A DNA stretch of 52,649 bases from Methanosarcinales archaeon (GCA_048634245.1 JAIWAR010000005.1:1-52649), one strand, 5' to 3'. Counted from the stretch's first letter, positions 655 to 44,900 are shown. Numbers and translations are program-made. The notes: a model not told the origin generated them from the sequence alone.

Positions 655-666
655 ATTTAATAATAT

Positions 667-2890: not shown

Positions 2891-2895
2891 AAAAA

Positions 2896-2929: not shown

Positions 2930-2932
2930 AAA

Positions 2933-4267: not shown

Positions 4268-4318
4268 TGTTTTAAATTAAAAAATAAAATTCTCTAACAG
4301 AGTTTACTGACTGCGGGC

Positions 4319-9910: not shown

Positions 9911-9915
9911 TTTTT

Positions 9916-9949
9916 CCTCCTCAATGACCCCGCCGTTGGCGGGGGAATT
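9916..9949 (-). repeat. 34-bp hairpin plus Shine-Dalgarno element, copy 2
   Basis: 33/34 identical to 2896-2929, with the same spacing to the start codon. Confidence 0.85.
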
Positions 9950-9950
9950 G

Positions 9951-10011
9951 ATCCCGAAGCGCTTCTGAAAAATGTCGTAAGAGATTTTTCAGATATTTAG
10001 GCGCGAGGGAT
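9951..10011. repeat. Imperfect long inverted repeat between mcsB and clpC
   Basis: TCTGAAAAAT...ATTTTTCAGA forms a 10-bp stem, with outer arms ATCCC...GGGAT. Confidence 0.55.
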
Positions 10012-10023
10012 ACTTAATATAAA

Positions 10024-11088: not shown

Positions 11089-11090
11089 AA

Positions 11091-15673: not shown

Positions 15674-15682
15674 AGCTTATAG

Positions 15683-15711
15683 ATTATATATAATATATCC
15701 CCCCCTGTCAA
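15683..15711 (-). promoter_or_regulatory. Consensus sigma70 promoter for the lysS operon
   Basis: Minus strand reads TTGACA (15711-15706), 17-nt spacer, TATAAT (15688-15683), then 9 nt to the lysS ATG. Confidence 0.9.
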
Positions 15712-15746
15712 ACTAAATCCCCGCTTACCTAAATATATTATATATA

Positions 15747-16661: not shown

Positions 16662-16671
16662 CCCTTTTCCT

Positions 16672-18509: not shown

Positions 18510-18546
18510 TTTTAGGTTCTTTCGTAAATTTTGTGAGTTCTGCTTT

Positions 18547-18659
18547 AATTCAACATAGTGTTTTTGCGCGCGCAACAATCTGAAGCAGCCCCGAAGGGGC
18601 TATTAGGTTTAATTCAGCAATGCGATGGATGTGAGCACGCAAAAACACTATGTTGGATT
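18547..18659. repeat. About 113-bp MITE/REPIN-like element with terminal inverted repeats
   Basis: CAACATAGTGTTTTTGCG (18551-18568) pairs perfectly with 18638-18655 and extends further with mismatches. Inner hairpin AGCCCC-GAA-GGGGCT at 18587-18601. Confidence 0.7.
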
Positions 18660-20175: not shown

Positions 20176-21282
20176 TTAAAAAGGTTTGCCTCTATTGTTT
20201 TTTACAACATTTTTTATTCCAATTATCAATCCAAGCGCATCATAAATATTATTAAACCCGGCATCTACATTCTCATTTTTCCACTCTTTCCGGTTATCAC
20301 TTATCAAAACAGTCATAACTCCTCTTCTCTTCGCCGGAGCCAAATCCCGTATAATATCATCGCCTATAGATACTATCTCTCCCGGAGAAACTTTACCAAA
20401 CATCGCCCGAGGAATGGAAGGCCAAACGCGGGTAATCACCCTTAAGATAGGATTAAAAAGCAAATCCATTATTCTATTGCGAAAGCGCGGCTGAGTAAAT
20501 CTATCTATGATTTTGCCGAACATAAGCGGCTTATCAGCATAGCCGATTACTTCGTCAATATAGTTAGCAATATCTAATTTTCCTAAAATATCACCCACAG
20601 TTTCCTCATCCGAATTCGAAACAACAACCAATTTCATTTTCTGTTTTTTCAAAGTACTCAGCATCGCGCACAATTTTTCGTCCGGATGTATACCGTAATC
20701 CCGGGAATGTTCGCAAATATGTTCTTTAAATCTCTCGTGTATATCAGATAAACCTCTACCGCCAAGCATATTGGCGATTATAATCAAAGGCCGCATATCA
20801 TGGCTTACATATACCATAGCCGAATACGCCTGTTTATCGATAATTATGGGATATTCTTTTGCTCTCAAATCTTCCGGGATTAGTTTTCTAACAAGCCTGC
20901 TTTGGCTGTGATCAACCCGTATACTCCAGGCTTTCACAACTCTATGGTTGCTATCTACTTCAAGAATATGTTTTTTTCCGCGAACGTAAACCTCACCTTC
21001 GTTAATAACACCTTCATCATCCCTAAACTTCCGGCATTCGTTATCAAATATAACTCGTTTTTTTTCTTCCGGTATGGCTTCCCGGAGCATACTAATATAT
21101 TTGTCTATATATTTCCTGTGTTTTAATCGATAAAGAGTATTATCAAGGTCAAAAATGATTAGTTTCAAATTTGCTATAGCCTTAACTAACTCAAAATCAC
21201 AGCTTTCAAATAAACCCGAAGGCAGAGGCTCTTTCTGCCCAACAGTTGTAAACAAAGTATACTCTCCTGTTTTGGATAACCT
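20176..21282 (-). other. Module: HAD-superfamily hydrolase
   Basis: Motif I IIFDLDNTLY, motif II VVVSNS, motif III KP, motif IV SIGDDIIRD. Confidence 0.85.
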
Positions 21283-27200: not shown

Positions 27201-30200
27201 GCTTCTCTATTTGCCTCACTTCTTCATTAAGAATAATAGCTAAAAGCTCCTCCCCTTCAGGATAAAAAGTTACCTTTAACAATAACCTTCCTTTGCCCTG
27301 CGCATCCCTAAAAAAATCACCCATAATAAAAGGGCTCATCTCTTCCGACAAAGTATAGACTTTCGGATCAGAACAGCTGCGGTAAAATTTATTACGTAAA
27401 GGTGCCTTTGAATTTAATACAACATATTTAATGATTTCCTCTTCGCGCTTTGCAGCATCCGCAATACTAACCATTCTTTCAGCTTCTCTCACTATAGCTT
27501 CGTCCGTCTGCTCCTCAATTCCCTTGGCAAGAAGATACTCTTTTGTCAATGCCGTAACTCTATTGCTTAAAAATCCTTTATAGAGCGCGTAATGCGCCAA
27601 AGCCTCAGCCAGATAAACATTTGACTCATGGCTACTAGACTTCACATTCGCGGGAATAACAGCGTACTTATGCTGAAGAAGCATCTTACTTATCCTATCC
27701 GGGAAAACATCTCCAAATATAAGCGGCAGATGAGTAAAACCTAATAGGCCGAAGCTAATGAACATGAGTATGAAAAAATAGGGGGTGGTGAAAAATATAT
27801 AGTAAAATTCACTTATTATGTCTGTATGCGAATACAGCAAAAAAAGACTCGCATAAAAGAAAGCGGGAAAGAAAAGTATATAATTAATTTTTTCTCTTAT
27901 TGCCGGATCAAAGATAATATTTCGCGGGTGTACAATGTTAATTTCACGGTTAAAATCGTTTACCAATTTATCTGCTATTTCCCGATTACCCGCCAGTATA
28001 AGCGCTGTTTCCTTTAATGTATTCTGAAAAGCATCCCTTTCTCTCTCAGAGAAAGGCTTAAATTGAATAAAATCGAAAAACATTTCACGCTTCAAGGGTT
28101 GACCCTTTTCTTTTAATTCTCCGCCATCTTTATTATTTTCATCCTTTTCTTTTTTATCATCACTTAAAATCTTCCACATATCATCGCCTGTGATCAATCC
28201 CCCAAACTTCTGTTTTTCCCAAAATTCTACAACCTTAGGAGCTCCTACAAGTTCCACTTTTCTAATCGACCATTCAGAAAATAATTTCTTTTCCAATTTC
28301 TTATAAAAAATGGTTCCTAATCCTTCACCTTTTATAAAAACCTCAAACCATGCAATATGAGCTTTATTACCTCTTAATATAACACTAGCCTCTCCCAACT
28401 TTCTCTTGTCCATTTTGTTTACCAAATGATATACATAATAATGATACCCCCCATATTTCTTAACAGTTGCTACTTCATAATCATTAGAATTATTCCACCT
28501 GCCGCCATCAGCGACATTTTTGTCTAATGTCGAGGGCTGATCCCATTGTTCTTTACCTCTTAAGTTATAAAAATGCTTAAACAGCATATCTTTCATAAGA
28601 AGATTTTGAGCTATCAATTCAAAGTAAGAATCGAAGTATTTATCACCATGTCTGCTACCTACTACGTTCCCCGTTAAATACTGCGCAATAGTAAAATCAA
28701 CAAGGTAATATTGCCCCAAATCTTTATCCTTAACAAGCGCAAAATTTTGTCGCCCAACTCTTATCCTATATGCTTCATATCCAGCTAGATTAAACGCAGC
28801 AACAACAAGGCTGGCTACTCTACAACATATACCCGGATGCAAATCAGGCATCTCATCTGCAGTTTTAACATACTCTGCCGTAATAACTTTTTCATCCAGA
28901 ATATTAAACAGCATATCAATTTTATTAACAAAAGAAATGGCATTATCGTTTAAGAATACAACATTCCTTATGGGAGAAAGCCCATTTTTCAATATATCGC
29001 AGATTTCTTCGCGATGATTCTCAAATTTGCCTAACTCCACTTTAGAAAAATCTTCTAAAACGCTTTCGTTTATCAACCCTTCAGTTATAACAAAACCGCT
29101 ATCTTCATAATTGACAACACCTCCACCTTTTAAAATAGCAAAAAGTGCGGCTTTATCATCCGGGTAGAGAGAAATCAAACTTAAATCACAACTCATTACA
29201 ATAGAAGAAGCCATTCTTTCATTAAACGCTTGCGGCTGTGTTTCATAAGTCCCTGTTTCCCCGCCATAAACATCATTAAATAGCTTATTATTCTTATTGC
29301 CATTTCGTATATTTAATTTGTTTGTGCCTGGTTTTACAGACACTTTCACCGGAATAGCAAGATACGTTTTACTCACGTCTAAATATTTTGGTTGATCGCC
29401 GCCATCTTTATCCTTAGAAAAAACTGGTTTCACCTTCTCCCATATCAGTTCGTAGTCCTCATAAAGCACTTTACAGGGTTTCGCAAACCCAGGACTGTTG
29501 TCAATTATATTAGCTATGATTTCTCCGAATCTGAAACCAAAATCTAAAATATCCAACCGATCAGCCAAAACCTGCCAGGAAACTATACAAGACAGCCTGT
29601 TATTAAGATTGGTGTTCAGGCGATTCGCCGTTATTTCCGTCTCATAATAGTCCAAAGCATACTCAATCCCTCCTTTATACCTCTTTCTATATTTTCCAAC
29701 CCCGCCGCAAAAAATCATCCCCATTTTATGAGCGGCTGTTTCCAGGGCAAATTGTAATACTTTATCGGAATTAATATTAAGAAAAGTATATTTATCAATA
29801 TCCACCTTTAATCCACGGATATAGTAATGATTTGGAAATCCTTGTCTAAACAAAGATCCATCAGCGCTCAACATTTTAAGCCTAGGATAAATACCCCTTT
29901 CTACAGTATTATGTCCCAAGTCATGCCTAATGTGGACATCCATAATATTTAAAAACTTATCTCTATCCCTAAATGGAGAGTGGAGCGTGCTTGCTATGTT
30001 TATCAGAAGGCCTTTATTGTCTCTTTCAAAGGCTGTTGGGAATGGCTCCGAACTCCTTTCTATATCTATATACCTAAATCCCACATTCTCATCCCCAAGA
30101 ATATTTTTCGCATCCGCCTCAGCTTCTCTAATCAACCCTAAAACTTCTGCCATTATTTCAGATGTCCAGCCGCGAGACTCAGCCACAAAATCCCTACGTA

Positions 30201-33200
30201 AAAAACCCGGGTCAAATTTTAATCTCTCATCAAGTCTCTTGTCTCCACTATCAAAATCTCTAATTTTACTTCCACCGTCTTTCTTGCAAATAAAACTGTT
30301 TTCTTCGACTTCAGAAATAACATTTAGAGGAGTGGGATTTGCTAATTCTTCTAATATCCTATTTTTCCGATCATCTTCCAATAACTCTCTGGCGCAATAA
30401 ATCTGCGGCCTCTGCCCTCCATAATGAGCAGGCTGTACCGGGATAAAAACATAGGTCATTTTTTGCAATTCTGCATACTCTTGGGCAGTCACATATAATT
30501 TTAACCAATTGCTTACCTCTTTAAAATTCCTCAATTCATTACTGCTCAATTCATTTTGTTCCTCGATAGAAACTTCACGTTCCTCGCCTTCAAATTTAAA
30601 AGGCACCTGCTTACAATCCTTATAATCCGGGGACCATTCTCCTGATGTTATCCTCACAGATGAAAAATTCCTTTCTTCCAAAGCCTTTATTCCCGGAGTA
30701 CACTCTTCATTCAGCAAACTATCGCAGTCCCTTCCTCCTTTCAATACGCCTCCCCCATATTTCCCTCCATCTCTTGAAACAGTAAAAGCCTGTCCACACA
30801 CTCTCTCTTCGTTATCTCCCTCTTGCTTTATTCCACTATCGCTACTTTTATACATATCAGGAATAGAAAGATGCGTTATCCTTAAGAATTTTTTAAATCG
30901 CGCTATATATAAATCCTCCTTGAGCGGAGCAAGTTCCTTACTCCACCCCTCAGTCAATTCAAGTTCATCTTCCCAAAGTATTGGCGGCCCGATTTTTTGG
31001 GAAACATATCCTAAATCCGGCATATTTTTGTCATACATACGTTCTGCTAACTGAGGAGAAATACCCTTGTCAAACTGTTTTCGCAAAATACGAAATACGT
31101 CCCTGTTGTCGTTTCCATCATACTCTCTATCTAAATCCATATCTGAAGAATTTAGTAAAAGACCAAGCTTACGATGGATATACCATGTTTCATTTCTGAA
31201 AAATATCAAACCTTTCCCAACTAAATCTCCAAAAAGCGCTTTTACCACATTGCCATCCTTAATTACCTTTGAAAAACAAGACTCTTCAATTGCTCCAAGC
31301 CACCGCTTCATGATCAGCCGGCTAGCAGGAAATATTATTCTTTTCAGTCCCATTTCCCGTGCGTATATCTCAAGACACAACATCATCTCTATTCGCCAAT
31401 TTGCATACCGCTTTCCAAGTAATTTCCTGTCTCTTAACATCCGGTCATAATCGCTTTGAATTTCACTTACAACCAAAGTATCATCTATTATATAGTAGCG
31501 TACATAACAAAGAGCGTCGAACACATGCAGAAAACCGTAACCCTCTTCCGGGATAAGAGTTATTTTCCGTTTAGTTAACAACTCAAACTCGGTCTCATCA
31601 GGAAATAGTGCTAAAATCCGGGCATTTGGCAAAACTCCTCCCATTTGTCTTGTAAGCTCATAGGGCATTTCTCTCAATCTACCTCCAAAAAGTGAAATCC
31701 TAAGACTATTATTAATCTCTAATTTTTCTCTCCGGTCACCGGATAGATTAATCTCAATAGGACACGCTGGCAAATTATATGCTGTGTGGAACAATAAATT
31801 TTCAAAAACTGTACGCTTACCGCAAGGAAATGTCCTGAATACCCTGGCAAGAACATCAAATTTTTTAAGGTATTTAACTAATTCAGCCGAGAAATCTGGA
31901 AGTAATTCAGACAAAATGCTTAACAACAAATCAATAACAATTCCCTGTGATTTACTGTCTTTATTAATAAGCGATGTTTTTATAATGAGGCGATCGATTA
32001 ACTCTATTATCTCCTCTTTAGGTAAATTGGATAAAGAAGGGATAAGCTCATATAATCTATTTATAGATTCGGTTTCACCGTCGAAATGCCAGGTATTCCG
32101 TATAGATTCCGCTAAAGTTTTAATTTCTTTTATTAACCTATCATTTTCCGGAATATCTTTTAATCCGCCGTCTTTGTCATCCTTAAGTTGACACTTATGT
32201 GTAACCGGAAAAAACCTTGCTTTTCGATTTATTCCTGCTCCCCCGTCCTTACCCTTTAAATCAAAGCTGTTTTTTATATCATACATTATAAAAGTGGAAG
32301 GCGCATCTTTTGGGGAATATAATGACGGTTTCCTAACTATAACCTTAAACTTTTCTGCTAACTTTTCTTTATAGAACTTAACCACCTGCTCTACATTATC
32401 AAGGTAGTCCGTGGAAAGTCTTCCTCCCCCTCTTACTCTAATCTCTACAACAGCCGCCTCAATCATGCTGACGCCAACACCCTTTCTTTGGTGTTGCGAA
32501 CTTACAACTATATATTGAATATAACCACATGGATTTACCATTAAATACCCTATTATTCTGCCATCTGCACACTTTGCCAATATACCAATATTATTCTGGT
32601 CTTTGAAGCGCCGGCTAACTACGTTGTCGTATTCCGACTCCAATCCCGCTGATTCATTTATTGTCCCTAGTTGTTCAAATATCCTTGCTTCATGGATACC
32701 TTCTCCTATTAAACTCTGGAATGTTACGATTGAATACGTTAGGCCTTCGGTTAAAAAATTACTTCCCCCGTCGTATGCCTTCATTCTCTTCTTTTCTATC
32801 AAAGGTTTAAAAGCTTTCCCGCGCGCTGAATTAAAAAACTCTTCCATATCATTTCGAAAAAAAGAATTATTAAAAAGGCTATTCATTATCTTTTTAAACT
32901 CTTCCCTTTCTAAACGGCAAAGGGACTTAAGCCGGTCTAAACTCATCTCTCCGGCCAAGGAATCTCCTTTTCTGTTAAAACTAAGTATTGTCTGATAAAC
33001 ACTCTGCGAATTTAAATAATTAGCAACTAAAAAAGCCTCTATATCTTCCTCTTTAACATTCTTTTTAATTATAAGCTGGGTTATTCTCATATTTGGTTCG
33101 GGCAGCCCGTACTTTTCAAATTCTTTCAAGTTTTGCAAAGTATTTGGAGATTTTATAATGCTTTTATGACTCAGGTAAAATTTTTGCAATCCTCTATCAT

Positions 33201-35985
33201 TCAACCAGTTAACCAGTTCTTCCACATGCGAAAGAGTTAAAATTTCTAATTCTTTCTCATAAATTGATGTTAATTTGTTCTTTTCAAATATCCTGAAATT
33301 CATCGGCACCCACGGAGAGGTTAAAATGCCGATATTAATTCTATCCAGGCCGCTTAGAACAATTGGTAAACTAAGATTTTCTTTTACCTGCGGAGAGGTT
33401 AAAACCTCTTCTTTCAACAACCCATATATGTAAAACACATTAAGCTCTTTATCCGTCATCGCTTTAATATTGTCTCCTATAACTTTCAAAGGATGCTTTA
33501 ATAAAGGCTCCTTGATTTCTATATTATAAGCCGCAAGAACTGAAGTGATTTCTAAATTTTTCCAAGTCAAACTTATATTTTTTCCAAGTAGTTGATTTTT
33601 TGCCTTTTCAACATTTACCGGAGTTATGTTAATCCCGGTTATTTTTTTAATCTCAGTAACTATTTTTTTCGCGATACCGGGGCCTAAATTTTTCTTTATT
33701 GTCAAAACAATTTCGGAATCATTATCATCGTTACCATTTTTTCCTCCATCGTTACTGCTGACATCACAGTATATTCTTTGGCGACGCCCCCCGTCCTTAT
33801 CTGTTTCTATTAAACCTAATTCTTTCATTAAGGAGCGGTTGATAAAACATTTCCCATTTTCATCTTCAACAATTAGGGCCTTTTTAATAAGGATGTTAAA
33901 TAAATACGTATTGCAATCATCAAATTCAAGCATTTCCGTCTCTAATAACTTTCCTAACAATTTTCTGCTAGTAAAATTTACTGTCTTTAGTTTTTTCCGA
34001 TTTTCGCCGCTCAAACATTCCCAGCCATATTTAAATCTATCTAAAGGACCATTTATTTTTAGAGCACGAGCAAAACTATTTTTAAGAATATACCCCGCTG
34101 CTCTTCGTTTTCCAATATTTTCTTCTTCTAAAAAGCCTAACAAATACAAAATACGCATGGCTCTTTTATCGGCTTTTGTATCAGCATAAAGAATCGGCGA
34201 ATACATTTCCCTTAAGGTGTTCAACAGCAAATATGCGTTCTTCTCACTTAAACCAACAAATAAAGCTTTCACTTCCCGAGACGGATTATCATTCAATTTA
34301 TTCCATAATTCCCAAATTGCTTTATCCTTTTCCTCAATAGAACCCGTATTAAAATAATACCTTTTTCCCTTGTCAAGCTTTCCTATAGATATTAAATCTT
34401 CTTCTATGTCTTCAGTCAAAATGAACATACCCTTGGAGATTTCAATTAATACATTGCTTTTCATAATCCACTTCCTGGAGTCTTGGTTAAAAAAGCCATA
34501 GGTTTTAAACAACTCATAAGTAATTATAAAAATGTTCTCCTCAGATATCTTTTCTAATAACGCGCTAAGATTTTCTTGATATTTTTCCTTATTTCTATTT
34601 TTTGGGAAAGTATATTTATTTAGCAAAAGCAGTTTTACCGTATTTTTCTGATATTCTTCGCTTGTTTTCTTCTGGGCGGCTCTAACATCTTTTCGGGGCT
34701 GTTTTTTTTCTGGTTTCTTTTTATCGTTTACTTTTCGGGATATTCTTTCCTCATCCGCGGTTTTAGTTCTTGTTTTCTTCTTTGTCTTTGGCTTCTTTCT
34801 TCGTTCAGAATCTAGAATTTCCCCTATTTTTATTTTCTCCCAACATTCGCTTCCTTTACCAGCATTAATCTTAATCTCCGGGCTTCCTTTTACTTTTCTT
34901 TGTAAAAATCCTTCCCTTACTAACCATCTTATTTGAGAACTCACACTTGGAGTATTACTTTTCAACAATTTATCTATATATTTAACCTTTATATCTAAAC
35001 ATACATACACAAAAACACGAATTTTGCTTTCCGCCCATTTAGCTACGCCGGAGGAAACAAGATTCTTAATGCCGGATTCAAACAATTTATAGTCTTTCAA
35101 AAATTCCTTTTCACTCTCATAAGAAGAATTTTCATTAAGCATAATCTTTAAGCTTTCTATCCATTTTCCTATCTTAAACTCCCACGCTTTTGCGTTAGTC
35201 AACTTACCTTTTCTTACCAGCTCAATAAATTCCTCCCCCTTATCTGTTACTTTAGCGCGGGAAAATCTATCTTCAGAAACATATATCAATCCCCTCTCTA
35301 TTAAATGCCCCCTGCAATAAAGAATATTTCTCTCTGACATATCGCAATATTTTGCAGTCTCATAATAGGAATAGTCTATTTTAATAGCTAAAAGAACTTC
35401 AAAATCTTCCTTTGAAATATAAAGCCGGTGTTTTATATTCTCAAAATTTTCTAAAGCATTTTTATAATCCTGGATACTTTTCTCTGACTTTCTCTTAGTT
35501 AGAACTTTCTTCAATTCTTCCCTATCAACCTCACCATTAAAATACTGTAACAATACCTTTTTTACTTTATTATTTACAAGATATGTTCTTTCTGTTATAG
35601 GCCTGTTGCCTTGAGCTCTCCCCGTTATAACTTTAGCTCCCGGCTTATAAAACCGCTTTTTTAAATAATGATTGTACAATGATTTTTTATCAATACCTGT
35701 TATCCCTGCTATCTCTTTTACAAAATTATAACCTTGCATTATAGTTGTTATTATTAACACATCATTCGCGTTTACCCCCCACCAATCCTGCGGATTCGTG
35801 CTAAGAAAATCATACAACTCTTTAAGACGCACGAATTGCGGTTCATCAAGGCCTAAAATTTCTTTCATATCTTCACCAAAAACATCCTGTTTCACTTTCG
35901 CGAAAACCATGCCTAATACAAGGAGAGTAAAGACTACTGAGGAAGGTGCTCTATTATCTTTTACACCCCGGATATTTTCCCCCCG
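20176..35985 (-). CDS. Giant DGG-delimited multidomain protein, C-terminal segment (track ORF 20176-35910; frame open to 35985)
   Basis: 5244-aa ORF with 17 DGG motifs. No SD before ATG 35910. The frame stays open upstream into the last DGG of the preceding ORF. Confidence 0.9.
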   Translation of the reverse strand, partial: RGENIRGVKDNRAPSSVVFTLLVLGMVFAKVKQDVFGEDMKEILGLDEPQFVRLKELYDFLSTNPQDWWGVNANDVLIITTIMQGYNFVKEIAGITGIDKKSLYNHYLKKRFYKPGAKVITGRAQGNRPITERTYLVNNKVKKVLLQYFNGEVDREELKKVLTKRKSEKSIQDYKNALENFENIKHRLYISKEDFEVLLAIKIDYSYYETAKYCDMSERNILYCRGHLIERGLIYVSEDRFSRAKVTDKGEEFIELVRKGKLTNAKAWEFKIGKWIESLKIMLNENSSYESEKEFLKDYKLFESGIKNLVSSGVAKWAESKIRVFVYVCLDIKVKYIDKLLKSNTPSVSSQIRWLVREGFLQRKVKGSPEIKINAGKGSECWEKIKIGEILDSERRKKPKTKKKTRTKTADEERISRKVNDKKKPEKKQPRKDVRAAQKKTSEEYQKNTVKLLLLNKYTFPKNRNKEKYQENLSALLEKISEENIFIITYELFKTYGFFNQDSRKWIMKSNVLIEISKGMFILTEDIEEDLISIGKLDKGKRYYFNTGSIEEKDKAIWELWNKLNDNPSREVKALFVGLSEKNAYLLLNTLREMYSPILYADTKADKRAMRILYLLGFLEEENIGKRRAAGYILKNSFARALKINGPLDRFKYGWECLSGENRKKLKTVNFTSRKLLGKLLETEMLEFDDCNTYLFNILIKKALIVEDENGKCFINRSLMKELGLIETDKDGGRRQRIYCDVSSNDGGKNGNDDNDSEIVLTIKKNLGPGIAKKIVTEIKKITGINITPVNVEKAKNQLLGKNISLTWKNLEITSVLAAYNIEIKEPLLKHPLKVIGDNIKAMTDKELNVFYIYGLLKEEVLTSPQVKENLSLPIVLSGLDRINIGILTSPWVPMNFRIFEKNKLTSIYEKELEILTLSHVEELVNWLNDRGLQKFYLSHKSIIKSPNTLQNLKEFEKYGLPEPNMRITQLIIKKNVKEEDIEAFLVANYLNSQSVYQTILSFNRKGDSLAGEMSLDRLKSLCRLEREEFKKIMNSLFNNSFFRNDMEEFFNSARGKAFKPLIEKKRMKAYDGGSNFLTEGLTYSIVTFQSLIGEGIHEARIFEQLGTINESAGLESEYDNVVSRRFKDQNNIGILAKCADGRIIGYLMVNPCGYIQYIVVSSQHQRKGVGVSMIEAAVVEIRVRGGGRLSTDYLDNVEQVVKFYKEKLAEKFKVIVRKPSLYSPKDAPSTFIMYDIKNSFDLKGKDGGAGINRKARFFPVTHKCQLKDDKDGGLKDIPENDRLIKEIKTLAESIRNTWHFDGETESINRLYELIPSLSNLPKEEIIELIDRLIIKTSLINKDSKSQGIVIDLLLSILSELLPDFSAELVKYLKKFDVLARVFRTFPCGKRTVFENLLFHTAYNLPACPIEINLSGDRREKLEINNSLRISLFGGRLREMPYELTRQMGGVLPNARILALFPDETEFELLTKRKITLIPEEGYGFLHVFDALCYVRYYIIDDTLVVSEIQSDYDRMLRDRKLLGKRYANWRIEMMLCLEIYAREMGLKRIIFPASRLIMKRWLGAIEESCFSKVIKDGNVVKALFGDLVGKGLIFFRNETWYIHRKLGLLLNSSDMDLDREYDGNDNRDVFRILRKQFDKGISPQLAERMYDKNMPDLGYVSQKIGPPILWEDELELTEGWSKELAPLKEDLYIARFKKFLRITHLSIPDMYKSSDSGIKQEGDNEERVCGQAFTVSRDGGKYGGGVLKGGRDCDSLLNEECTPGIKALEERNFSSVRITSGEWSPDYKDCKQVPFKFEGEEREVSIEEQNELSSNELRNFKEVSNWLKLYVTAQEYAELQKMTYVFIPVQPAHYGGQRPQIYCARELLEDDRKNRILEELANPTPLNVISEVEENSFICKKDGGSKIRDFDSGDKRLDERLKFDPGFLRRDFVAESRGWTSEIMAEVLGLIREAEADAKNILGDENVGFRYIDIERSSEPFPTAFERDNKGLLINIASTLHSPFRDRDKFLNIMDVHIRHDLGHNTVERGIYPRLKMLSADGSLFRQGFPNHYYIRGLKVDIDKYTFLNINSDKVLQFALETAAHKMGMIFCGGVGKYRKRYKGGIEYALDYYETEITANRLNTNLNNRLSCIVSWQVLADRLDILDFGFRFGEIIANIIDNSPGFAKPCKVLYEDYELIWEKVKPVFSKDKDGGDQPKYLDVSKTYLAIPVKVSVKPGTNKLNIRNGNKNNKLFNDVYGGETGTYETQPQAFNERMASSIVMSCDLSLISLYPDDKAALFAILKGGGVVNYEDSGFVITEGLINESVLEDFSKVELGKFENHREEICDILKNGLSPIRNVVFLNDNAISFVNKIDMLFNILDEKVITAEYVKTADEMPDLHPGICCRVASLVVAAFNLAGYEAYRIRVGRQNFALVKDKDLGQYYLVDFTIAQYLTGNVVGSRHGDKYFDSYFELIAQNLLMKDMLFKHFYNLRGKEQWDQPSTLDKNVADGGRWNNSNDYEVATVKKYGGYHYYVYHLVNKMDKRKLGEASVILRGNKAHIAWFEVFIKGEGLGTIFYKKLEKKLFSEWSIRKVELVGAPKVVEFWEKQKFGGLITGDDMWKILSDDKKEKDENNKDGGELKEKGQPLKREMFFDFIQFKPFSERERDAFQNTLKETALILAGNREIADKLVNDFNREINIVHPRNIIFDPAIREKINYILFFPAFFYASLFLLYSHTDIISEFYYIFFTTPYFFILMFISFGLLGFTHLPLIFGDVFPDRISKMLLQHKYAVIPANVKSSSHESNVYLAEALAHYALYKGFLSNRVTALTKEYLLAKGIEEQTDEAIVREAERMVSIADAAKREEEIIKYVVLNSKAPLRNKFYRSCSDPKVYTLSEEMSPFIMGDFFRDAQGKGRLLLKVTFYPEGEELLAIILNEEVRQIEKQISVQAGEIYAKIYLFLRANILLTGYKDIEIEIVTEDVREVTQRIYNKGSLKGLLSEKDIKVSITQEDKAKVKMMRELACVAASSGKEINTDEIRNVMKEYNISDPLKERTIAGIFSIAGEKEISFDTTKIIRAVDQEYPNKLELKPAEEENFSPAQKTMVEDRTDILRLLPGMKKERINQIYANIKTLKMDIYLRERKIEFLTITAVSFLVIYTGLLLMISSHPGAVINGWFEFKENIFLVVAALCFSLEIAGLYLIRIMGQKPFICSPRKEKVYISHFLTRHAFLRAKMQGIAHLILSGKGIKDRMGYTNAAGVLYAFEKTGLIPAKVYDDFMYGANIAKEKMVIDKKALKQWAKEKTTLKEQYHYYASTPWFWCWKSGERAWMKHSGVALAGYYFAVAKDTLNKEGEVRRPLLAWKVLKKDMGVRNLDGGRLSKAERNKISDALLIINRYMRVEALGEKEVAERKIYEIIELFEKANEDSVNSRFILNVFLLSLKTWEETKQGRETLSAFIRTKAGKNFELALSKNIIPNTGFRASETDDFSAKISWRFIFPVLGTIAEVRFLHLLHIKKIVSNILSEILDSRKGDETKDKIRVLDLGCGILSVPILSALGRSNVFYIGIDRDRWIIKFNKKAAKFLRRENSEYLQTQAGALCFSDNSIDFMIIASCETDWKEVNRVLKPGGLVLCTSRSYQTHIIFQALVDKTGFKKLWEGFSTPGSASANTCILANKPLEKKQGYIFGSGEEGKEITFENSNKRIKANKVIHLFIAMPLLSVMAMIGIHYSPFFLYAYPFLAAFVWSAIKIIQMKFERLEARLDIREKDNFELGADSADKDGGDVATGLFIVAAGFTVLWFFSEVFPKVLAYLGIIKKAGHKNTHIRFEPFILDNGQKVIFYGVSHPGAMFQYPFNLINCCFPELRPFLEKERVVALEHGFYYYVVPPGKYKHYVIDMSDDKERKSVTYMSTSENPKKACWALRNAYMAENIMAVLTKHSELNELFVFTGEDHIRKEKSILYFLKYSKERDELIEKNRNVTPKSYRKLKEEMPIKDGGKIRQEVIKLSDGGQEVIVRKGRLIEQDGVQVLIPLEGKEEKNFDCLAEYLKATWSLPDLRVYSSKHNMVFYSYIHDLLFGSKEMYDPENENLKPGTFKENELNDEAVSIFGDFMFSGLLTQWFEQQQVEEELTKEDFFRDIFQSLELTNYPVMRANIPEDYCYAGSEPFKDKPENQPKRNFLNGEFERPFICAPSKSRILSSEFRKFEFGDIEGRKWTFYSWNTLPRHWVEGRIPQIKRLSVVEKGKEKVLFPKESLIPNEELREATLSQDGKILVIIKNTGIEVLDLETYAVIMKIRRNNVLCGARLLLDNSKNGIKQFYKDGEVITYLKESCDGGVLIGVEKYPRFNLKKAAACLLPSGSNKLCETSDVPHILVLLKSLDNIPVEDGAIGHGEVSSLSLRRGVNFNRGTNFDGGALKEMAEEINRGEEVLDIGERIDEFKNKSPRDQMQIIEELGQIGTYDVLPIFEHASGALHSGIRKTAARALRNISPEEEAVILLRKLLDDNVMTVRYEALCSLGDIHTGEAVKLIAAKLGDDTYMVADKAAELLVKHGDKGIRELLNVLSTDCSKGGHRAAAALKEHCFDLMLIPELYEMYYQNSDPELKGVIADICQAIIKHAYRGMSVLRKTYPKRLKDIDDFVVKLLNCQEDIFRSIRLVDLKNRLAKDKLIIVDEAISNGITTFELYERIRKEVTGSQSILIVGCDISTEYFIVESNRNIACFNFEGGLLQIKLQGRLYPAKEIPIGAEGVLEILSELNRQKKRTAVSTLYLPVLESMESRQISFIRHNIFEPFAQNLEADIIRIFNLLLPENFNEEEIIDAFICEGKNLKNGGILIVGYSRKISESEKINLSNPEYLTKEEELHFIVYQREKDCLVHRYETLYGCGVRSDILLEVIDLYPSCPTHKSEEMQSEQFQDGGRLSKTGEYTLFTTVGQKEPLPSGLFESCDFELVKAIANLKLIIFDLDNTLYRLKHRKYIDKYISMLREAIPEEKKRVIFDNECRKFRDDEGVINEGEVYVRGKKHILEVDSNHRVVKAWSIRVDHSQSRLVRKLIPEDLRAKEYPIIIDKQAYSAMVYVSHDMRPLIIIANMLGGRGLSDIHERFKEHICEHSRDYGIHPDEKLCAMLSTLKKQKMKLVVVSNSDEETVGDILGKLDIANYIDEVIGYADKPLMFGKIIDRFTQPRFRNRIMDLLFNPILRVITRVWPSIPRAMFGKVSPGEIVSIGDDIIRDLAPAKRRGVMTVLISDNRKEWKNENVDAGFNNIYDALGLIIGIKNVVKNNRGKPF
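21292..22794 (-). other. Module: HEAT repeats plus CheR-like methyltransferase fold
   Basis: IRKTAARAL and VRYEALCSLG HEAT-like repeats; IVGCDIS, ISFIRHNIF, ADIIRIFNLL and LKNGGILIVG. Confidence 0.7.
24052..24687 (-). other. Module: TM anchor plus TraB/GumN(Tiki)-like domain
   Basis: Ordered motifs YGVSH, VVALE, RNAYMAENI and VFTGEDHI. Confidence 0.65.
24697..25902 (-). other. Module: class I SAM methyltransferase plus TM hairpin
   Basis: VLDLGCG, IGID, FSDNSIDF and EVNRVLKPGG motifs. Confidence 0.85.
25912..28119 (-). other. Module: membrane protein with two TM-pair units
   Basis: Four long hydrophobic stretches in two similar units, each followed by a helix ending in AH (LAEALAH, MQGIAH). 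Confidence 0.5.
28129..28500 (-). other. Module: GNAT acetyltransferase
   Basis: HIAWFEV..KGEGLGT and VVEFWEKQKF. Confidence 0.75.
28510..29397 (-). other. Module: transglutaminase/papain-like fold
   Basis: GICCRVA helix and YYLVDFTIAQY; the catalytic His is not evident (RQNF). Confidence 0.5.
32248..32763 (-). other. Module: GNAT acetyltransferase
   Basis: IIGYL, IVVSSQHQRKGVG and VVKFY. Confidence 0.8.
33796..35978 (-). other. Module: tandem winged-helix-like domains with Lys-rich linker
   Basis: ETAKYCDMSERNI..HLIERGLI..VTDKG and SVSSQIRWLVREGFL. Confidence 0.6.
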
Positions 35986-38900
35986 TCATTTTCTTGTCTA
36001 TTTGCCGCATTTTTATCAAAACCCATAGCGCCATTATCAAAAAAACGATTTCCTCTATGTATTTTTTTCATCGCATCGCAAAGCTCCTTAAAAAACTTGG
36101 GGCTAAAATTATCCTTTGATACAAGAGAAATATCTATTAAAGGATAAAAAGAAAAGGTACCCTGTAAATAAGCCCCCGCATCTTTCCAGTCTACAGCCTT
36201 TATACATACATTTCCCTCTATAACTTCCACAGAATGTACAAAACCAACCGAATCAAAATCTATGCGAAACCTTACCCCTAGTTTCTGAGATAATCGGCTA
36301 ATTGCTTCCTCAAGGATCGTCCCCACAATAGACGAAGTGTTAGGTGCCAAATTTACTGCGATAATTACATCATCATTTTGATAATCGAAAGTCCCTCTGG
36401 CAAAATCTCCTGCAAGATAATAATCAATAATTTCCCCTTCGTCTTTATATTTTTCCAAAAGGACTAAAACTTCTTTCATAACAAAACTCATTTTAATAAA
36501 GAAAAGCTCTAATCCGTTACCAACGACTATTTTCACTTCCGTTCTTGCTGTCCGGCCGCCGTCTTCACCTGAAATGATATTTATTTCTTTCCTCTCATCT
36601 TGTTTTGCTCCTTCCTCAACAACACTCTCGTCTTCATCTTTACCAGAAAACAACTGCCAGGAGGTTCTATAAAATCTATTGGGCGTTCTTGGATTAGGTT
36701 CGATAGAAAAATCTAAGATATGAGAATCATCTGGATTTTTTAAGAACTCTTCAGGGCCTGCTATTGTTACTGTCCTACGTCCGTCTCGAACAGGCATTTC
36801 ACTTAAATCGCTATAAATAATTTCGAGTTCATCTTTAGAAATTACCTCATCATTTCCCAGACTTCTCAATTTATTTATTAACTGAGGAGCAAAAATCAAT
36901 AACATTTCGTAGTAAAAACTAATCCATCTTATGCCAATGGTAAGAGTTTCCACCTTTACATCTTCCTTAAAAAAAGACGAAATATCCTTAAATCGGCATA
37001 AAAACCACTTATCTTTCTGCAAGTTATTGAATTTATAGGAAAAAGACCAAAGTGCACAATCGTTGTGTAACCACCATTTTTTAAAACTTTTATAGCCAAA
37101 TTTCTTTTCATATTCTCGCACAACAAAAGCAAGAAAATGCATAAACTTGATAAAAGCGGGGTCATCGTTACCAGAAAAAATCTCCTTAAAAGGCCGATCC
37201 AACCCATAATTAGTGGCCAACAATATTGCTCCATCAGCTCTAAAAATCATGCATTCTTGTGCAACAATATTACGGCTAGATGAAGGAAGGGATAAACCAA
37301 ATTTCTTTCTTAAATCATAAGCTCTTCCATACCACTCTATACTGTCATCACCTACCCACACTCTCTTTAATGAACAATCTTCCGGTTCTCTTATCCACCG
37401 GCAAACATCCCTATCACTTTCTAAAATTTTCATCATAGAGTCAAAAACTTCTTTTATTAAGGGGAAATCTTCTCCATATCCCTTACTATATAATCTGATT
37501 CCAGATGGTTTTAAGGTTTTTATAACATTAGCAAATCTATTAGCATATCTTGACACAGCTCTCTGGGGATTTTTAAAAACATCCCCATGAAAAACATGGA
37601 TACTTAACTCTACATTTTTCTCTATACCTCCCTTTAATCGTTCTATTTTTTCAGCTGCACGTTGTGCTACTTTATTATTAGGAAACCACCCATGTGTTAT
37701 TACTACTGGGGGTAAGTTAAAATCGTAAGCCATCTTGCATACATCTCCTAAATCCGCGTCTAAAACTTTATCATGATAATCAAAAGGCTCACTATTAAAG
37801 TAAAACATTACTCTTCTCCCTGTATCTACATTTAGAGCTTTACTAACTTCAACAAGAAATTTATTTACAAGAGGGAAAGGTATAGAAACAATTTTGCCTT
37901 TTTCAGAATCTACCTGACATGTAAGACAGTTATTGGAACAACCTATTGTAATTTGCAAAACAAGATCATCATGGTAAGAATATAGCGGTGATATTATCAA
38001 TTCTCTGATTCTCTGGGGAATACCTTCCATAATATCAACAAAGAATTCGGGATGAGGATTCTCAATCGTAGGAATTTGTTGTATTAAATTATTTATTCCC
38101 TTAGAATCTGTATCTGAGATAAAACATCCATTTTCTCTCGCAAGCCAATAATCAATTTCTCGTAATAAGGCCTTTCCTGCCTCGTTAAGAATAAACTTAT
38201 ATCCCTCAAAAATTCTTTTCCCCCTCCACAACTCATCTTTTTTAATTTCTCCTATACAGGTAGGTAGAAACTGTTCCTTTGTGCTGCCACCATCTCTATT
38301 GCTGGTAACGCCAACGCTTTCCGGCTGTTCCCTTTTTCCCGCTAACTCAATATCCTTTCCCTCATCAACAATCTCAGCAATTTTGTAATACATAGAATAG
38401 GGAGATTCTGAACTTTTTTCTTCAAAAAGTAATACTCCCGGAGATTTAAGATTATTCCCAAGCTCCTTAGCAAAAGATACCGCGCTATTTTCATCATTAA
38501 ATGCCCAGGTAAGGCGACAAATATTTATATCTGCTTTTCTCTCAAGTAAAATTTCCCGGGTATCTTCATCCCTTATATCCATATAAAAATAGGCATAATC
38601 TATACAATCATGGAAATACATCGGGAGTAAAAGGCGAGTTTGAATTTCTGTATTTCTATATGCCCGTGTCAATCTTTTTAAAGATATATCATACCCGGTA
38701 AGCTGAATATGCACCCTTCCAGTAAGTACTAATTCCTTAAATTTCCGGTTATTTTCCGCATACTCAGTTATCATCCGAGCTGCTCCGTACAATTCCTCGC
38801 CAATACCGCAACCAAAACTCTGCACTACTATTTCTATTTCTTCTTCATCCGTTTTAGAAGAAACAACCAAAGGAATCGCCTTTTTCAGTATCTCTTCTTC

Positions 38901-41900
38901 TGCCTCATCAAACGAAAAGTATATCTGATGTTTTGACAAACGAGGAATCCTCAATTCTGCAGTAAAAGCATCATTAATGATTTTGAATAAATGCTTTTTG
39001 CCACACTTTACATAAGGCAAAAAGTACTTAGCTATGTCATCTATTTCCACCTCTTTTCTGCCTCCATCGCATTCTTTTTGTGCCAATATAAAGTAATTCA
39101 TACTTGTTCTCTTGAAGACTTTATTCACCAAAGGAAGTTTATTCATCCATAAAAGAGGTAAAAATTCAGGTTTGTACTCTATTATAGGAGTATACATAGG
39201 AAACATAAAAGCTCGTAAAGGGTTTGCCCCTCTGGTTTCAATTATTCTTAATCCCTTTGATTTAACCAACTCTTCTAAGTAAAAGGCGGTCATAAAGTTC
39301 TCTCTACCCCTTTCACCGTCCTTTATATGTGTCTCCCATGGCTCCCACCATGGGGCATCCTCCCCTCTATCTTTTATTTTCTTTATTAGGCCTGCGGCAT
39401 TAAAATAATTGGGGGTGCTTAAAATTATGAAACCTTTGGGTGCTAAAACTTCTTCTATCTGTCCAACCGCCCTTTGCGGAGAAAATACATGTTCTAAAAC
39501 TTCTGTACATACAACAATATCTGCACTCTTTTTTAAAGGTAAATTTTGGATACTTCCTGTCATAAATCCTATATCTTGAGGATTAAAACTATGCAGCCTT
39601 GATAAATTAAAATAATTATCCAAAAGGTCATCAGAAATACCATATATTTTTTTCAATTCCTCTCTTCTTAAATTTATACTTTCCTTATCAGGTACGATTC
39701 GGGAAGCTTCAAGCGCTTTTTTCGAGATATCCAAAGCAAGAAGCTTGCTTTCAGGGAAACACTCGCTAATAACTCCTAAATTCTGGCCTAACCCCGAACC
39801 TAAATCCGCGATAAAACCTACTTTTCTCCTCGTTTCTTTTATCTTCTTCAGAAATTCTCTTAAAATTACCTGGGTATACGGCGCGCTTAAAAATGCTCCC
39901 GGATTTGTGAATTTTTTATAAAAATCTGTCCCACCATCCTGTTTATCTTCAAGCTCACCTTTCTCTCCATGGAATACTATTTCAGCTGATTCAATCAAAA
40001 CTTTCTGTTTCCAGTCCTCTCCTAACATCTCTAACCGGGAAAACCCTTCTGTCAGGCTTGCCATTGTTTGCTCATCGACCATACCTTTAAATACAGTTTC
40101 CATAAACTTAATCTGCCCGCCAATCTCGTCTATATCATCAACAAAATACCCCCAGTCATAAAATTCTGCATCTCCGCTCATCCGTTTTTCTTTTAATTTG
40201 ATATTTCTTTCCAAAATATTAAATATAAGATTCACGATATCTAAACCATGGAGTTTAAAGGATTCGCATATAGTTATAAAATTATTGCTTATCATCTCTA
40301 CGTCTTCGCAAATATCTTTATTACCCTGCTTCTCTACAAGTTTTTTTAAAATTTCCGCTGAATACTTCAGCTCAATAAGGTAAAACAACGGCAAGATAAT
40401 CCCGCGAATTAACAATTCTGCCTGCTCCCAATCTGTTTTTCGCAGACAAATTATTTTTAAAAAAACGGGCTCCATCAATTTATTTAAAACAAAAAGATGC
40501 TCTCTAAACTTTATCAAAAATTCTTCTACCCCTTCGTTAGGATAAAAATAATTAATCGGATTGTTTATCTCAATAAAACCTAATTCATCCGATGTAATTT
40601 CGGGCGCTAATTGAATAAAATTATCCTTCTTCCTCCAGCTATCAGGCGAATCCCTATTCTTTAACAGTTCATCCGGAGAAGCTAAAACTTTATTGTTTAC
40701 ACTGCCAACTAACAGATAACCTAAGCTGGCATAAATCTTATTAGCAAAAGACATGAAACCCCTTATATTCTCAGAAATATCCTTAAGCTGCGATGACGGC
40801 TCAGCTAATATACAGTTAATTTGCGCATGGATTGCATTTTCCACCAAAAACGACACCATTGCATATGCATTCTCAATATACTTTTTAGCCTCGCCTTCTT
40901 GTACTTTTCTCATCTCATAAAGCTGCTTCTCTGACATACTCTCAACACCTAATTCAACTCTGTAAAGCCCGAGAGATTTTAATCTTATAATCGCCTCTTC
41001 TGACCTTTTATTAAGCTCTCTCACTCTTGTTTGAATAGAGAATGTTAATTGCTCAAATAATTCGGGATTATTTTTTTGTTCCTCTTCCATTAAATCTATA
41101 AATTCAAATAACCAACTGGGATTTTGTAAAAAATCATCATCGTTTAATCCTATCCTTCGAATATGGGAATTCTTAAGCACATACATTATATTCTCAACAA
41201 CCCGTTTGGAAGATATACTGCCTCTTAATTTAGGCGCAAAACAAAAAGCGCATTCTGCGTATGAACAGCCGTCCTGCGCATATATAGATAACTCATCATA
41301 CGGCTGCGCCGCTTCTGGAGGATAATACCTCTTATTATATTCCTTACCATATGGCAAGATACTCGTAATTCTATGGAACTTATCCATTGAAACCGGTGGA
41401 AAACCGGATTTCCGGCGTTCTCTCTTATCCATAAGATATCTCTCCACAGGAGAAATACCCTTATATAGACGCTCTATGAATCTTTTCTTTATTTCATCCG
41501 GATTTTCCTCATATACCCCCTGACTATCTTTTACTCCATAAAATGATTCAATAATGCCTGCTTTATCCTCTAGATGTCCATTCACTATAATGTCCTTTTC
41601 GTCCCCTTTTGTTTTTATTTCCGCGATTATTTCAGTATTTTCAAGAACATTTTTTACCTGCCTTACTACCGCATCCGGGTTAGGTCCAATCGCAACTATT
41701 CTATTCTCAGCTTTTCCCCCAATAATACTGCCAACTTTCATAAATATGTTCTGCGGGAATATGTTATATCTATAATCCGAAAGTTCTCTACTGAGTCTTT
41801 CACCCGATAATTCAGCTGCATGAAAACTGGTTAAAGGGCTTATAAAATGACATTCTCCAAATTCAATATTAATCATCTCTTTTTTATTATTTAATTCCCT

Positions 41901-44900
41901 TCGCGATAAATTATTTTTGCAAAACTTATCCAACAGCGTGTCATAAGGGATTCTCAATAAAGAATCGGGGATTTTTTCAATATCGTTTCTCGCTATCAAG
42001 TTCACAACCCAGAGCAAAGTATTATCTACATCGCCCTGCATTACAATATCTACTCCTCCGGCTTTAATAAGATTAAACGGTTCAAAAATTCCTTTTCCGC
42101 CTAAAATAACAACTACTCCCGGGTCAATTATTTTAATCTCTCTTGCTAATCTAAGATTCACTGCAAGATCAAGTGTCGTTGTTGAAATACCTATAATATT
42201 GTAAGGCCTCTCTTTGCATGACTTCTTATAATACCTTAATTTTTTTAATAATGCCGTGGCACTATTGTAGAAATCAGTAGAGTGTCCCCCTTCTTTTAGA
42301 ATTTCCGCAAAAAACAATATCCCGGGAGACTGATATTTTGCTACACCATCGTAATTCTGAATAAAAGCGACGTTCTGAGGCACTATTTTTTTGCCTATAT
42401 CTTCTATCCCTCCATCGCTGTTGCTGCTATTTTTTTTCTTTATTAGTCGAAGTTCATTAAGAATTGCCCTCTTCTCTATACTTTCTCTGACGGTCTTAAG
42501 CGGCTTACCATGCAAAAAATCTCTAATCTCTACTTTCATAATATTTTTCTGAACTAAATACGCTAAGCAGCCTTGTTCGGCACGAGATAATATCGTCCAT
42601 TTCTCTTCTAACGGCTCATCCTTATTGCTAATCAATATTTCTTTTACTTTATCAGCGTAAGCCTCATTCTCTTCGTTAACTCCAAAATACTTTTTAGAAT
42701 ACATCTCTTCCATACAAAGAGAGATATTAAAGGCCAACAAAATTTCCGTAAATACTTCCAGATATTTTTGTGGTGTTATATTCGCCTCCAAGCTATACCA
42801 CTCATATTTCAGCTCACCCATAAATTTTATTATATATTTTGCTTCCTCTATCATCTCGTTTATATCATCATCGATTAATCTAAGGTTCCCTCTTCTAGAT
42901 GCCCGCAAAATGGTTAACCGGGTGAAAATCTCTTCAATAGTTAATTTGAGCTCATTAAGAATATCCGCAAGGGACATTCTTTTTTCTTCCGTTCCTGTTT
43001 TAATAGCCATCTCTTCTTCTTCAAATTTAAGCTTACTTATTTTGTGTACTAGACTATCTATAAATGTTTTTTGCTCGCCCTCTGCCGGTTGGTATCCATG
43101 CTTGAGAATCTTTTGAATTTTAATCACACTTTGTTCTACTTTTATATCGGCACCGCCGTCATACCCCTGAGAATTAAAACCATTTTGTTTTTCAGAAACA
43201 GAAAAGCTTAATCGCGAGCCTGATACCGGCGGTTTAAAAGTAAATACCACCTCGGTATTTTTGCCTTTCCAGGTATCTGAATCACTATAAGAAATTTTAA
43301 GTTTATCCGCCATTATCTTCCATAAAGTCTCTGAAGTTACCTTCGATAAGATTAAATCTTCAATTCTATCCTGTCTTGTTATGATTGAACCGTTGTCACG
43401 CTGTGGCAATAAAAATCCATAACTTGACTTTTTTGATATAGAGTTTGCGGCAGAATTATTTAGGATTAAATCGAAAAATGTAATGATTGGTAAAACAAAC
43501 AAAAGCATAAATGAATAAAAGGAACAATAGCAATCATAACCTTCAATTGGCGAACCTTTGTTTTTGCCGGACTTAGCAAACCAAGATGTATATAGAGCAA
43601 GAACAGTGACTTCTGTCGGAATAAAGCCCAAAATAACCAAGTTGGATATGCCGCCATCGGGATCAAGTCTATTCCAATCGGAATCTCCTCTTATATCCTG
43701 AATAATATCTAACAGATAGTCCGAATCTCCCCTTTTTACCCTTTCAGCTAAAATATATCTAATCTGATAAGCATTTTCTTCTGCTTCCATATCTAAATTA
43801 TTTATTAATTCTAATATATCTTCTTTTTCTCTATGCAACTTTTCTCGTACTTTTTCTTTTAAAATATCTTCAAATATTTTTACTCTATTGTAAAATTCCT
43901 TAACTTTTCCTATCAAATCTTTTCTATCTATCCGCTTGAGGGATTGTTTTCTACCTCTCCTTGTTCCAACTGAAAAATAACCGTTATTGACTTTAAAATC
44001 CAATCCGGCCAAATTATTTATAAACTCTTCTATCTCTTCACCTGACATCTTTTCCATATCTTCTATTCTTTTACCCCCTTGTTCCATACTATTTATAAAA
44101 GCCCATATTGCCTGAATCTTGATATCTTTTCTTTCAATCTTTTCTTTTTCTTTCACGTCTCTCTTGGTTATTTTAAGATTGGAAAGATTCTCTATCTCAG
44201 GATATAAATCAAGAAATCTTTTTATATTTCCTTCATCTCCTGTATAACCCCAGTTCAACACCCCCAAATACTGCAAAACTATCGGGGCTACAACACCTGT
44301 GCCTGATAAATTTAATTCTCTGTTAATATTATTAAAATTTACTTTCTCCCCCAATTTAATGGTATCATATACTTTCCTTAAAATTATTAACTGTCTATCA
44401 GTTGGATTAGCTAAAAGTGACAGCATGGAAACAGCAAGGGATTTAGACACACCGCAGGATTCAATTATTGTTTTATTTATTGAGGATAGCACATAAATAG
44501 TATCCTTTATTTTATTACGATCTTCTACCTTTGTTATCTTCTCCAATCCAGCCAGCTCTTCAATTTTCTTTACCACTCTCAATTTGCCGGGAAATATATT
44601 TATACCGGCAATTTCTATCCTATTTAATGCTAACTCTACAGTCTCCTTATGCCTTTCCAACAAACTTTCTATATCATTGCTTGCATATACTACATGAGCA
44701 AACATTTTCTGATTTTTTCGCCCATCCGAGCCTCTCTTTATTATCTCAATAGCTTTATTTATCCTATAGTCACCTTCTTCTTTAATCCCCGCAGTTACTA
44801 TTAATCTTTCACATAACTTTTCATTCAATCCTATACTTCCTTCTTTATTAATTAAATTTTCTAATCTATCTTCCTTTAACTCTAACTCAGATAAATTTCT

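Follow-up and report, generated by a model that had tools for sequence, protein, structure and literature searches.

RESULTS

Two giant reading frames meet at a DGG motif

We examined a 52,649-nucleotide stretch of DNA, JAIWAR010000005.1 of assembly GCA_048634245.1 (hereafter the window), which is the whole of contig C5 of a metagenome-assembled genome (MAG), G000 (1.385 Mb, 99 contigs, 38.5% G+C). The window carries two giant open reading frames (ORFs), and our subject is the junction between them, where the reading frame changes by one base immediately behind an Asp-Gly-Gly (DGG) tripeptide. Both giant frames lie on the minus strand, and the G6 run at the junction therefore appears on the plus strand as C6. 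The features at the junction are as follows.

35961..52649, minus strand: upstream half of the proposed giant gene, 5,562 amino acids (aa), its 5' end running off the contig; by Pfam, methyltransferase, GNAT acetyltransferase, nucleotidyltransferase, B12-binding plus radical SAM, and two more methyltransferases; 17 DGG sites
20176..35910, minus strand: downstream half, 5,244 aa; HTH-like N-terminal region, GNAT, methyltransferase, HEAT, and a C-terminal HAD hydrolase; 17 DGG sites
35979..35984, minus strand: G6 run (GGG GGG), both Gly codons of the last DGG in the upstream half; equal in length in metagenome runs X1, X2, and X3 (described below)
35975..35978, minus strand: A4 run, the frame-change site; A5 in X3
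35961..35963, minus strand: TAA six codons past DGG, which closes the upstream frame when the A run is A4
35911..35985, minus strand: 25 open codons of the downstream frame before its first ATG, RGENIRGVKDNRAPSSVVFTLLVLG, with no ATG, GTG, or TTG; coding in the fused allele
35908..35910, minus strand: first ATG of the downstream frame, 50 nucleotides (nt) past the upstream stop
33787..33792, minus strand: second in-frame G6 (GAC GGG GGG); no indel here in any run

On the minus strand the junction reads AAT GAC GGG GGG AAA ATA TCC GGG GTG TAA (NDGG-KISGV*). The downstream frame is the -1 frame; it is closed by TGA at 35988-35986, is open from 35985, and reads RGENIRGVKDNRAPSSVVFTLLVLG-MVFAK.... 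The two frames overlap by 27 nt, and one base added anywhere inside this overlap yields a fused frame of 10,824 aa. An initial annotation of the window had proposed that the two ORFs are one gene broken by a single-base shift, and our recomputation agrees with its description of the locus: the junction letters (GAC GGG GGG AAA ATA...TAA), the opening of the downstream frame at 35985, the fused length, and the second G6 are all as given, and the DGG-ENLK sequence that it mentioned elsewhere in the protein is found at upstream residue 1157. GGGGGG is the coding used at only 2 of the 34 DGG sites.

Both a split and a fused allele occur in metagenomes

We compared independently built Logan contigs from four cold-seep metagenome runs (X1 to X4, from three studies) over positions 33000-39000; all four runs were compared as contigs, which drop minor variants within a sample. 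For X1, the probable source of the MAG (depth 14.5), one 5,878-base contig spans 33216-39000; it has no gaps, two substitutions, and the A4G6 junction. A contig from X2, another sample from the same study (depth 5.66), covers 35357-36513 and has the same A4G6 junction. X3, from a different study, has a T inserted behind 35974 on the plus strand, which makes the A run A5; a single contig carries this allele (depth 5.53 of 5.53). No other indel is listed for X3 between 35585 and 36080. The insertion falls inside the 27-nt overlap, such that the sequence becomes GGG GGG AAA AAT ATC CGG (DGG-KNIRGVKDNR...) and joins both frames. X4 has a depth of 0 at the junction. In the pieces of X3 that match the downstream region, 7 of 719 and 9 of 1,891 letters differ from the window, and we therefore regard X3 as the same species. 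Because independent contigs of two samples share the A4G6 junction, the A4 break is a real allele, and an in-frame allele exists in a conspecific population.

These comparisons bear out the proposal that the two ORFs are one gene cut by a single-base frame change, since the X3 allele joins the frames, and they correct it in detail. The initial annotation had placed the changed base in the G6 run, where one extra G would encode DGG-ENIR. Instead, the differing base sits in the A run (A5 versus A4, encoding DGG-KNIR), and the G run is G6 in the contigs of X1, X2, and X3. That annotation had also considered a homopolymer assembly error, in which the population's true sequence would be in frame. 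Frameshifts that are only apparent often stem from miscounted homopolymers, and the MAG does contain other artefacts, such as the end of contig C14 described below. However, the X1 (14.5) and X2 (5.66) contigs were built independently of the MAG and show no gap at the junction, and the junction region has no paralogue in the MAG's other giant-ORF contigs that could have caused a mis-join. We consider an artefact highly improbable.

The other indels listed for X3 and X4 are compensating +1/-1 pairs 2 to 4 nt apart (36122/36126, 36918/36920, and 38158/38162). Each pair alters one or two codons, and hence the frame is kept elsewhere, as purifying selection acting on the upstream half would bring about. 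X2 has one further change:

35712..35713, minus strand: 2-base deletion in a TCTC repeat, in X2 only, on top of A4

With this deletion, a product begun at ATG 35910 would stop at 72 aa. A 72-aa product is catalogued as protein P0003; it was called on the same 1,155-base X2 contig as the deletion and thus is not independent evidence. The extra deletion hints at early decay of the downstream half. Another X2 contig (depth 2.55) touches 35070 and 38438 with 28 unrelated letters between them; the matches are very short, and we disregarded this contig as foreign or a product of chance.

X3 diverges from the window very unevenly, by approximately 0.5% over 33000-35584 versus 8.6-11% over 36555-36812 and 36871-38294. 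This pattern in the alignments suggests that strains have recombined or exchanged cassettes within the gene.

ATG 35910 resembles an internal methionine

If the window held two separate neighboring genes originally, the extra base in X3 would be a secondary fusion or an error in a low-depth contig, and ATG 35910 would be a genuine start. Several observations are in line with this alternative. Of the three runs with coverage at the junction, two carry A4; the 5,244 aa of the downstream ORF are uninterrupted, with an ATG 50 nt past the stop; and relatives of the family vary in size, some being Met-started (e.g., P0002, 2,847 aa, and P0005, 456 aa). In addition, a 7,954-aa ORF on contig C13 of the same MAG is bounded by stops on either side, which shows that gene limits do occur between modules.

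The sequence around ATG 35910 argues in the other direction. To score start contexts, we used a position matrix that contrasts 738 presumed starts with 3,856 internal ATGs. The 25 nt upstream of ATG 35910 rank at the 1.5th percentile of presumed starts, among the poorest in the genome, and at the 15th percentile of internal ATGs. As the initial annotation stated, no Shine-Dalgarno sequence precedes this ATG; the preceding 25 nt (AGTCTTTACTCTCCTTGTATTAGGC) are without GGAG, GAGG, or AGGA. The 25 open codons before the ATG are likewise uncommon: at least 25 open codons precede the first ATG in only 10.5% of 745 ORFs of at least 200 aa (genome median, 5), and 27 open codons occur by chance in 6.3% of this gene's off-frame windows (1,351 of 21,504). 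Moreover, the ATG lies within a hydrophobic stretch that starts in the nominally noncoding part:

35893..35949, minus strand: hydrophobic, transmembrane-like stretch APSSVVFTLLVLGMVFAKV across ATG 35910; Kyte-Doolittle mean 2.06 over 17 residues

This is among 12 hydrophobic stretches (Kyte-Doolittle mean of at least 1.9 over 17 residues) in approximately 10,800 aa. Windows as hydrophobic as APSSVVFTLLVLGMVFAKV make up 0.22% of in-frame windows and 0.93% of open off-frame windows. No terminator-like site was found between the two ORFs, and a promoter scan gave nothing better than 9-of-12 matches. The poor start context, the 25 open codons, the hydrophobic stretch, and the absence of a terminator-like site together lead us to favor ATG 35910 as an internal Met. 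For two original genes to appear fused in X3, a random insertion must also land in the 27-nt window, and it is improbable that an indel error in the T4 run of a contig with depth 5.5 would by chance bring back a frame of 10,824 aa. We therefore judge separate genes to be unlikely.

The junction lacks the signals of programmed frame switching

A different possibility is that the G6A4 tract toggles the last 5,244 aa, through -1 ribosomal frameshifting, transcriptional slippage, or phase variation; the initial annotation had suggested slippage or phase variation. The frame change does fall inside the GGGGGGAAAA tract, the shift needed is -1, both length alleles occur in nature, and a position at a module boundary would give a clean on/off switch. 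Nevertheless, an X XXY YYZ heptamer is absent at the junction: in the zero frame, C GGG GGG AAA ATA, no heptamer lets both tRNAs re-pair, and a -1 slip would set the Lys tRNA in the A site opposite GAA. We found no stimulatory structure in the 96 nt downstream, which fold at -21.6 kcal/mol, no better than their shuffles (z -0.69; an equally good fold in 42 of 200). There is no long simple-sequence tract for phase variation, the runs being A4 and G6. Runs of this length are far below the length of known slippage or contingency tracts, and such runs are common in this genome (4,144 A5 runs and 106 G6 runs). The A4 and A5 alleles split by study, and one contig per run carries each. Nor is the shift conserved in relatives, as the one population that differs at the site (X3) is in frame and needs no recoding. 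The short runs, the missing heptamer, the fold, and the origin of the alleles in different studies thus speak against slippage or phase variation, and we regard programmed switching as very unlikely.

DGG marks module boundaries in the giant frames

We next describe the motif at which the break occurs. DGG is the most enriched tripeptide in both ORFs, with 17 occurrences in each versus 1.19 expected (z 14.5) and 34 in the window versus 2.4 expected. The giant pieces of the genome hold 130 of the 183 DGG found in its ORFs of at least 100 aa, and D precedes 99 of their 264 GG pairs. The 34 sites in the window use 19 different nine-base codings, which indicates that the mark is kept at the protein level. 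The residues around it are polar, with [N/D]-K-DGG a frequent form. Not one of these 34 falls within a Pfam stretch (P = 0.014). The modules bounded by DGG that contain the enzyme domains measure 175 to 826 aa, the sizes of free-standing enzymes.

The last upstream module, from the DGG at residue 5363 to that at 5555, has no Pfam match at E values up to 1; judged by eye only, it may be a minimal nucleotidyltransferase. Two single-sequence structure models reached pLDDT values of 35.1 and 45.6, too poor for domain limits.

Relatives found with HMMER are also rich in DGG:

P0004, 6,678 aa: 26 DGG observed versus 1.5 expected
P0002, 2,847 aa: 10 DGG observed versus 0.5 expected
P0001, 1,132 aa: 3 DGG observed versus 0.16 expected

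In BLAST comparisons of relatives with the window, homology blocks have DGG at both ends in both partners. In one such case, residues 719-1051 of the downstream ORF match P0002 2264-2585 and P0004 6245-6566, with DGG at 721/1047, 2266/2582, and 6247/6563, respectively. In P0005, a module like one of the downstream ORF is joined across a DGG to a module like one of the upstream ORF. Overall, 9 of 13 block ends are no more than 20 aa away from a DGG versus 1.7 expected, in a manual tally of BLAST rows that omits the contig-cut end of P0001 and in which the ends are not independent, P0002 and P0004 being related. Because homology blocks start and stop at DGG, the modules behave, on these alignments, as cassettes. 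A random break would fall within three codons of one of the 34 DGG sites with a chance of approximately 2%. The view that DGG delimits modules and that the break adjoins a module boundary, also put forward in the initial annotation, is therefore upheld by the 17 sites per ORF, their absence from Pfam stretches, and the block ends.

In another family of the same order, genome G025 has giant frames of 17,786 aa (G025:C5:133981-187338) and 8,412 aa (G025:C8) with zero DGG. The larger of these has an excess of SSS instead (66 versus 4.4). Linker marks may differ between lineages. What the 17,786-aa frame has in common with the upstream ORF is a single block of 93 residues; no block links it to the downstream ORF.

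Searches for relatives across the junction

We searched for relatives that cover the junction itself. A 300-aa junction-proximal query found no relative at near lengths and none at longer lengths up to 2,000 aa; at shorter lengths, it found P0003 alone. A 1,000-aa query against a representative protein library gave nine matches, none of which covers query residues 1-25. Two scans of JGI metagenomes gave no relative that spans the junction. Among 41 relative genomes, two match, G000 included, and among eight genomes of the same genus, none matches with either query.

The host belongs to Omnitrophota and carries further giant reading frames

The RadA protein encoded in the window has its 20 best loci at 62-82% identity, the next matches being at or below 47%. 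These 20 loci come from MAGs titled Candidatus Omnitrophota or Ca. Susulua, except for six titled "uncultured Planctomycetia." Judged by this protein, the host is an Omnitrophota bacterium.

Pfam domains along both frames comprise methyltransferases, GNAT acetyltransferases, a nucleotidyltransferase, B12-binding plus radical SAM, HEAT, and HAD. According to the available text of two studies (10.1101/2023.11.21.568195, 10.64898/2026.06.07.730766), a vocabulary of methyltransferase, GNAT, HAD, HEAT, and radical SAM domains is found in Omnitrophota giant proteins. With respect to size, the X3 allele would provide a single frame of more than 10,000 aa (10,824 aa, fused), and the window allele provides 5,562 plus 5,244 aa.

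Besides the window, giant reading frames in this MAG lie on further contigs, and approximately 150 kb of the 1.385 Mb is giant reading frame.

C3: single frame, 22,457 aa, open at both ends
C12: single frame, 8,675 aa, open at both ends
C13: ORF of 7,954 aa with stops at both ends; not strongly DGG-enriched
C59, C67, C69, and C71: giant-ORF fragments

DGG is strongly enriched in C3, C12, C59, C67, C69, and C71, with C13 as the exception. The uninterrupted frames of C3 and C12 indicate that continuity is the norm for these genes. The gene of the window may continue on another giant contig, but the ends of C5 overlap with none of them.

Downstream of the giant frames and on the same strand, window positions 1-19627 encode parts of an Opp/Nik-type ABC transporter, LysRS, LolCE, the McsB arginine kinase, a ClpB/ClpA-family AAA+ chaperone, and RadA. 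These housekeeping neighbors place the giant gene in the core chromosome rather than in an obvious mobile element.

DISCUSSION

We propose that the window contains one giant gene, broken when a single base was recently deleted one codon past a DGG, and we assign this reading a probability of roughly 0.7. The gene comprises at least 10,824 aa within the contig; its full length is probably far greater, since the contig ends before the upstream frame does. In the scenario we envision, the ancestor would have been fused, with an A5 run, and the loss of one base right behind the DGG codons would have produced A4. The upstream product in the A4 population would then end six codons after the DGG, and the remaining 5,244 aa would be made only if ribosomes restart at the internal Met, 50 nt downstream. 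Breaks at cassette limits may be better tolerated than breaks elsewhere and may be the ones that survive. The initial annotation had listed a recent mutation among its explanations; that a natural frameshift allele exists is borne out by X1 and X2 versus X3, and we infer that the change was a deletion and that it is recent.

Several points weigh against this reading. The fused allele comes from one Logan contig at a depth of 5.5 in one run, and that contig was judged by its listed differences only, so that a stop codon among 242 unlisted substitutions is possible. No outgroup covers the junction, X4 having no depth there, and no protein or locus across the junction was found in any collection searched. 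The N-terminal 1,000 aa of the downstream ORF are matched in only 2 of the 85 genomes of the order, G000 included. Because neither an outgroup nor a relative spans the junction, the direction of the change (deletion or insertion) is inferred. The genome's use of Shine-Dalgarno sequences is weak, with GGAG before 19% of 739 presumed starts, and the missing Shine-Dalgarno sequence alone is therefore weak evidence. Lastly, the downstream frame is intact for 15.7 kb, which fits a separate working gene as well as it fits a recent break.

Giant genes have only recently been discovered in Omnitrophota, and their products may work as a single chain or be cut into pieces. The alleles described here constitute a natural experiment, with the gene fused in one population and split at a module mark in another. 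In addition, DGG offers a simple and testable sequence mark for module limits in one lineage. For annotation, the two "genes" of approximately 5,000 aa should be labeled as one gene with a true frameshift allele rather than as an error to be corrected. The gene class itself is known, and a frameshift is in itself ordinary; DGG punctuation was not found in the literature searched. The main texts of 10.1101/2023.11.21.568195 and 10.64898/2026.06.07.730766 contain none of the terms "DGG," "double-glycine," "frameshift," or "polyprotein." Likewise, in the openly available literature searched, we found no paper that pairs Omnitrophota with a polyprotein, and the name Archaeovorin occurred in these two preprints alone. 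It is the combination of a DGG-punctuated cassette build with a natural pair of fused and split alleles that makes the case worth following up.

A possible role for C39 peptidases

A glycine pair at module boundaries led us to consider proteolysis. Peptidase_C39 exceeds the Pfam cutoff in the giant frames on contigs C12 and C14 (43.1 and 38.8 bits) and not in the window. The C12 frame begins with the Peptidase_C39 domain. On C14 (G000:C14:22423-25315), a signal-anchor-like stretch is followed by a C39 domain with NCG...SHFVAV, its Cys and His motifs being identified by eye, and by these features C14 looks like it carries the true N-terminus of a giant gene. The match of the C14 domain to the double-glycine protease domain of PDB entry 6mpz is weak and confined to the His region (E value, 0.015). 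At the DNA level, the C14 N-terminus shares 86-88% identity with the beginning of the C12 frame and is therefore a paralogue or a second strain. Past a 200-base inverted repeat (25106-25305), C14 terminates in an adapter-like AGATCGGAAG; this end and the stop at approximately 25246 are probably assembly artefacts.

On this basis, the giant could conceivably be a polyprotein in which DGG sites are cut by C39 and each cassette is released as a separate enzyme, a speculative idea that we consider rather unlikely. If true, it would explain the shuffling of cassettes between relatives at DGG. It would also explain the persistence of the frameshift, since only a five-residue tail that is trimmed anyway would be lost from the upstream product. 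Furthermore, it would supply the cleavage points of giant proteins, which the available text of 10.1101/2023.11.21.568195 describes as unknown. Evidence against a general link between DGG and C39 comes from six other C39-bearing giant frames of the order, none of which is enriched in DGG (0 to 5 observed versus 0.8 to 3.9 expected).

Comparison with known systems

The junction invites comparison with three known systems. As in programmed -1 sites (dnaX, IS elements) and homopolymer contingency loci, a -1 change occurs here in a homopolymer-rich tract between two long frames. Unlike those sites, the junction has no canonical heptamer, no stimulatory structure, and short runs, and a relative is simply in frame.

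Known C39 substrates have short N-terminal leaders that receive one cut and have hydrophobic positions upstream of GG. The likeness to C39 processing of bacteriocin and RTX-type precursors (LahT150 domain, PDB 6mpz) lies in the Gly-Gly pair at the putative boundary and in the C39 domains that giant frames of this genome carry. The differences are that the window has 34 internal sites in polar [N/D]-K-DGG contexts and that the C39 domains lie on other, unlinked contigs.

The closest counterparts are the giant proteins of Omnitrophota, described in the available text of 10.1101/2023.11.21.568195 and 10.64898/2026.06.07.730766 as "Archaeovorin"-type or as a "multi-enzyme metabolic cluster." The window's gene shares with them the host phylum, frame sizes of thousands to tens of thousands of residues, and the domain vocabulary. 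Judged by Kyte-Doolittle means, it may also share their scattered hydrophobic segments. Giant frames that start with a C39 peptidase domain are found both among those giants and in this genome. Unlike the giants as described in that text, the frame here is broken by a natural frameshift allele, and its modules are punctuated by DGG.

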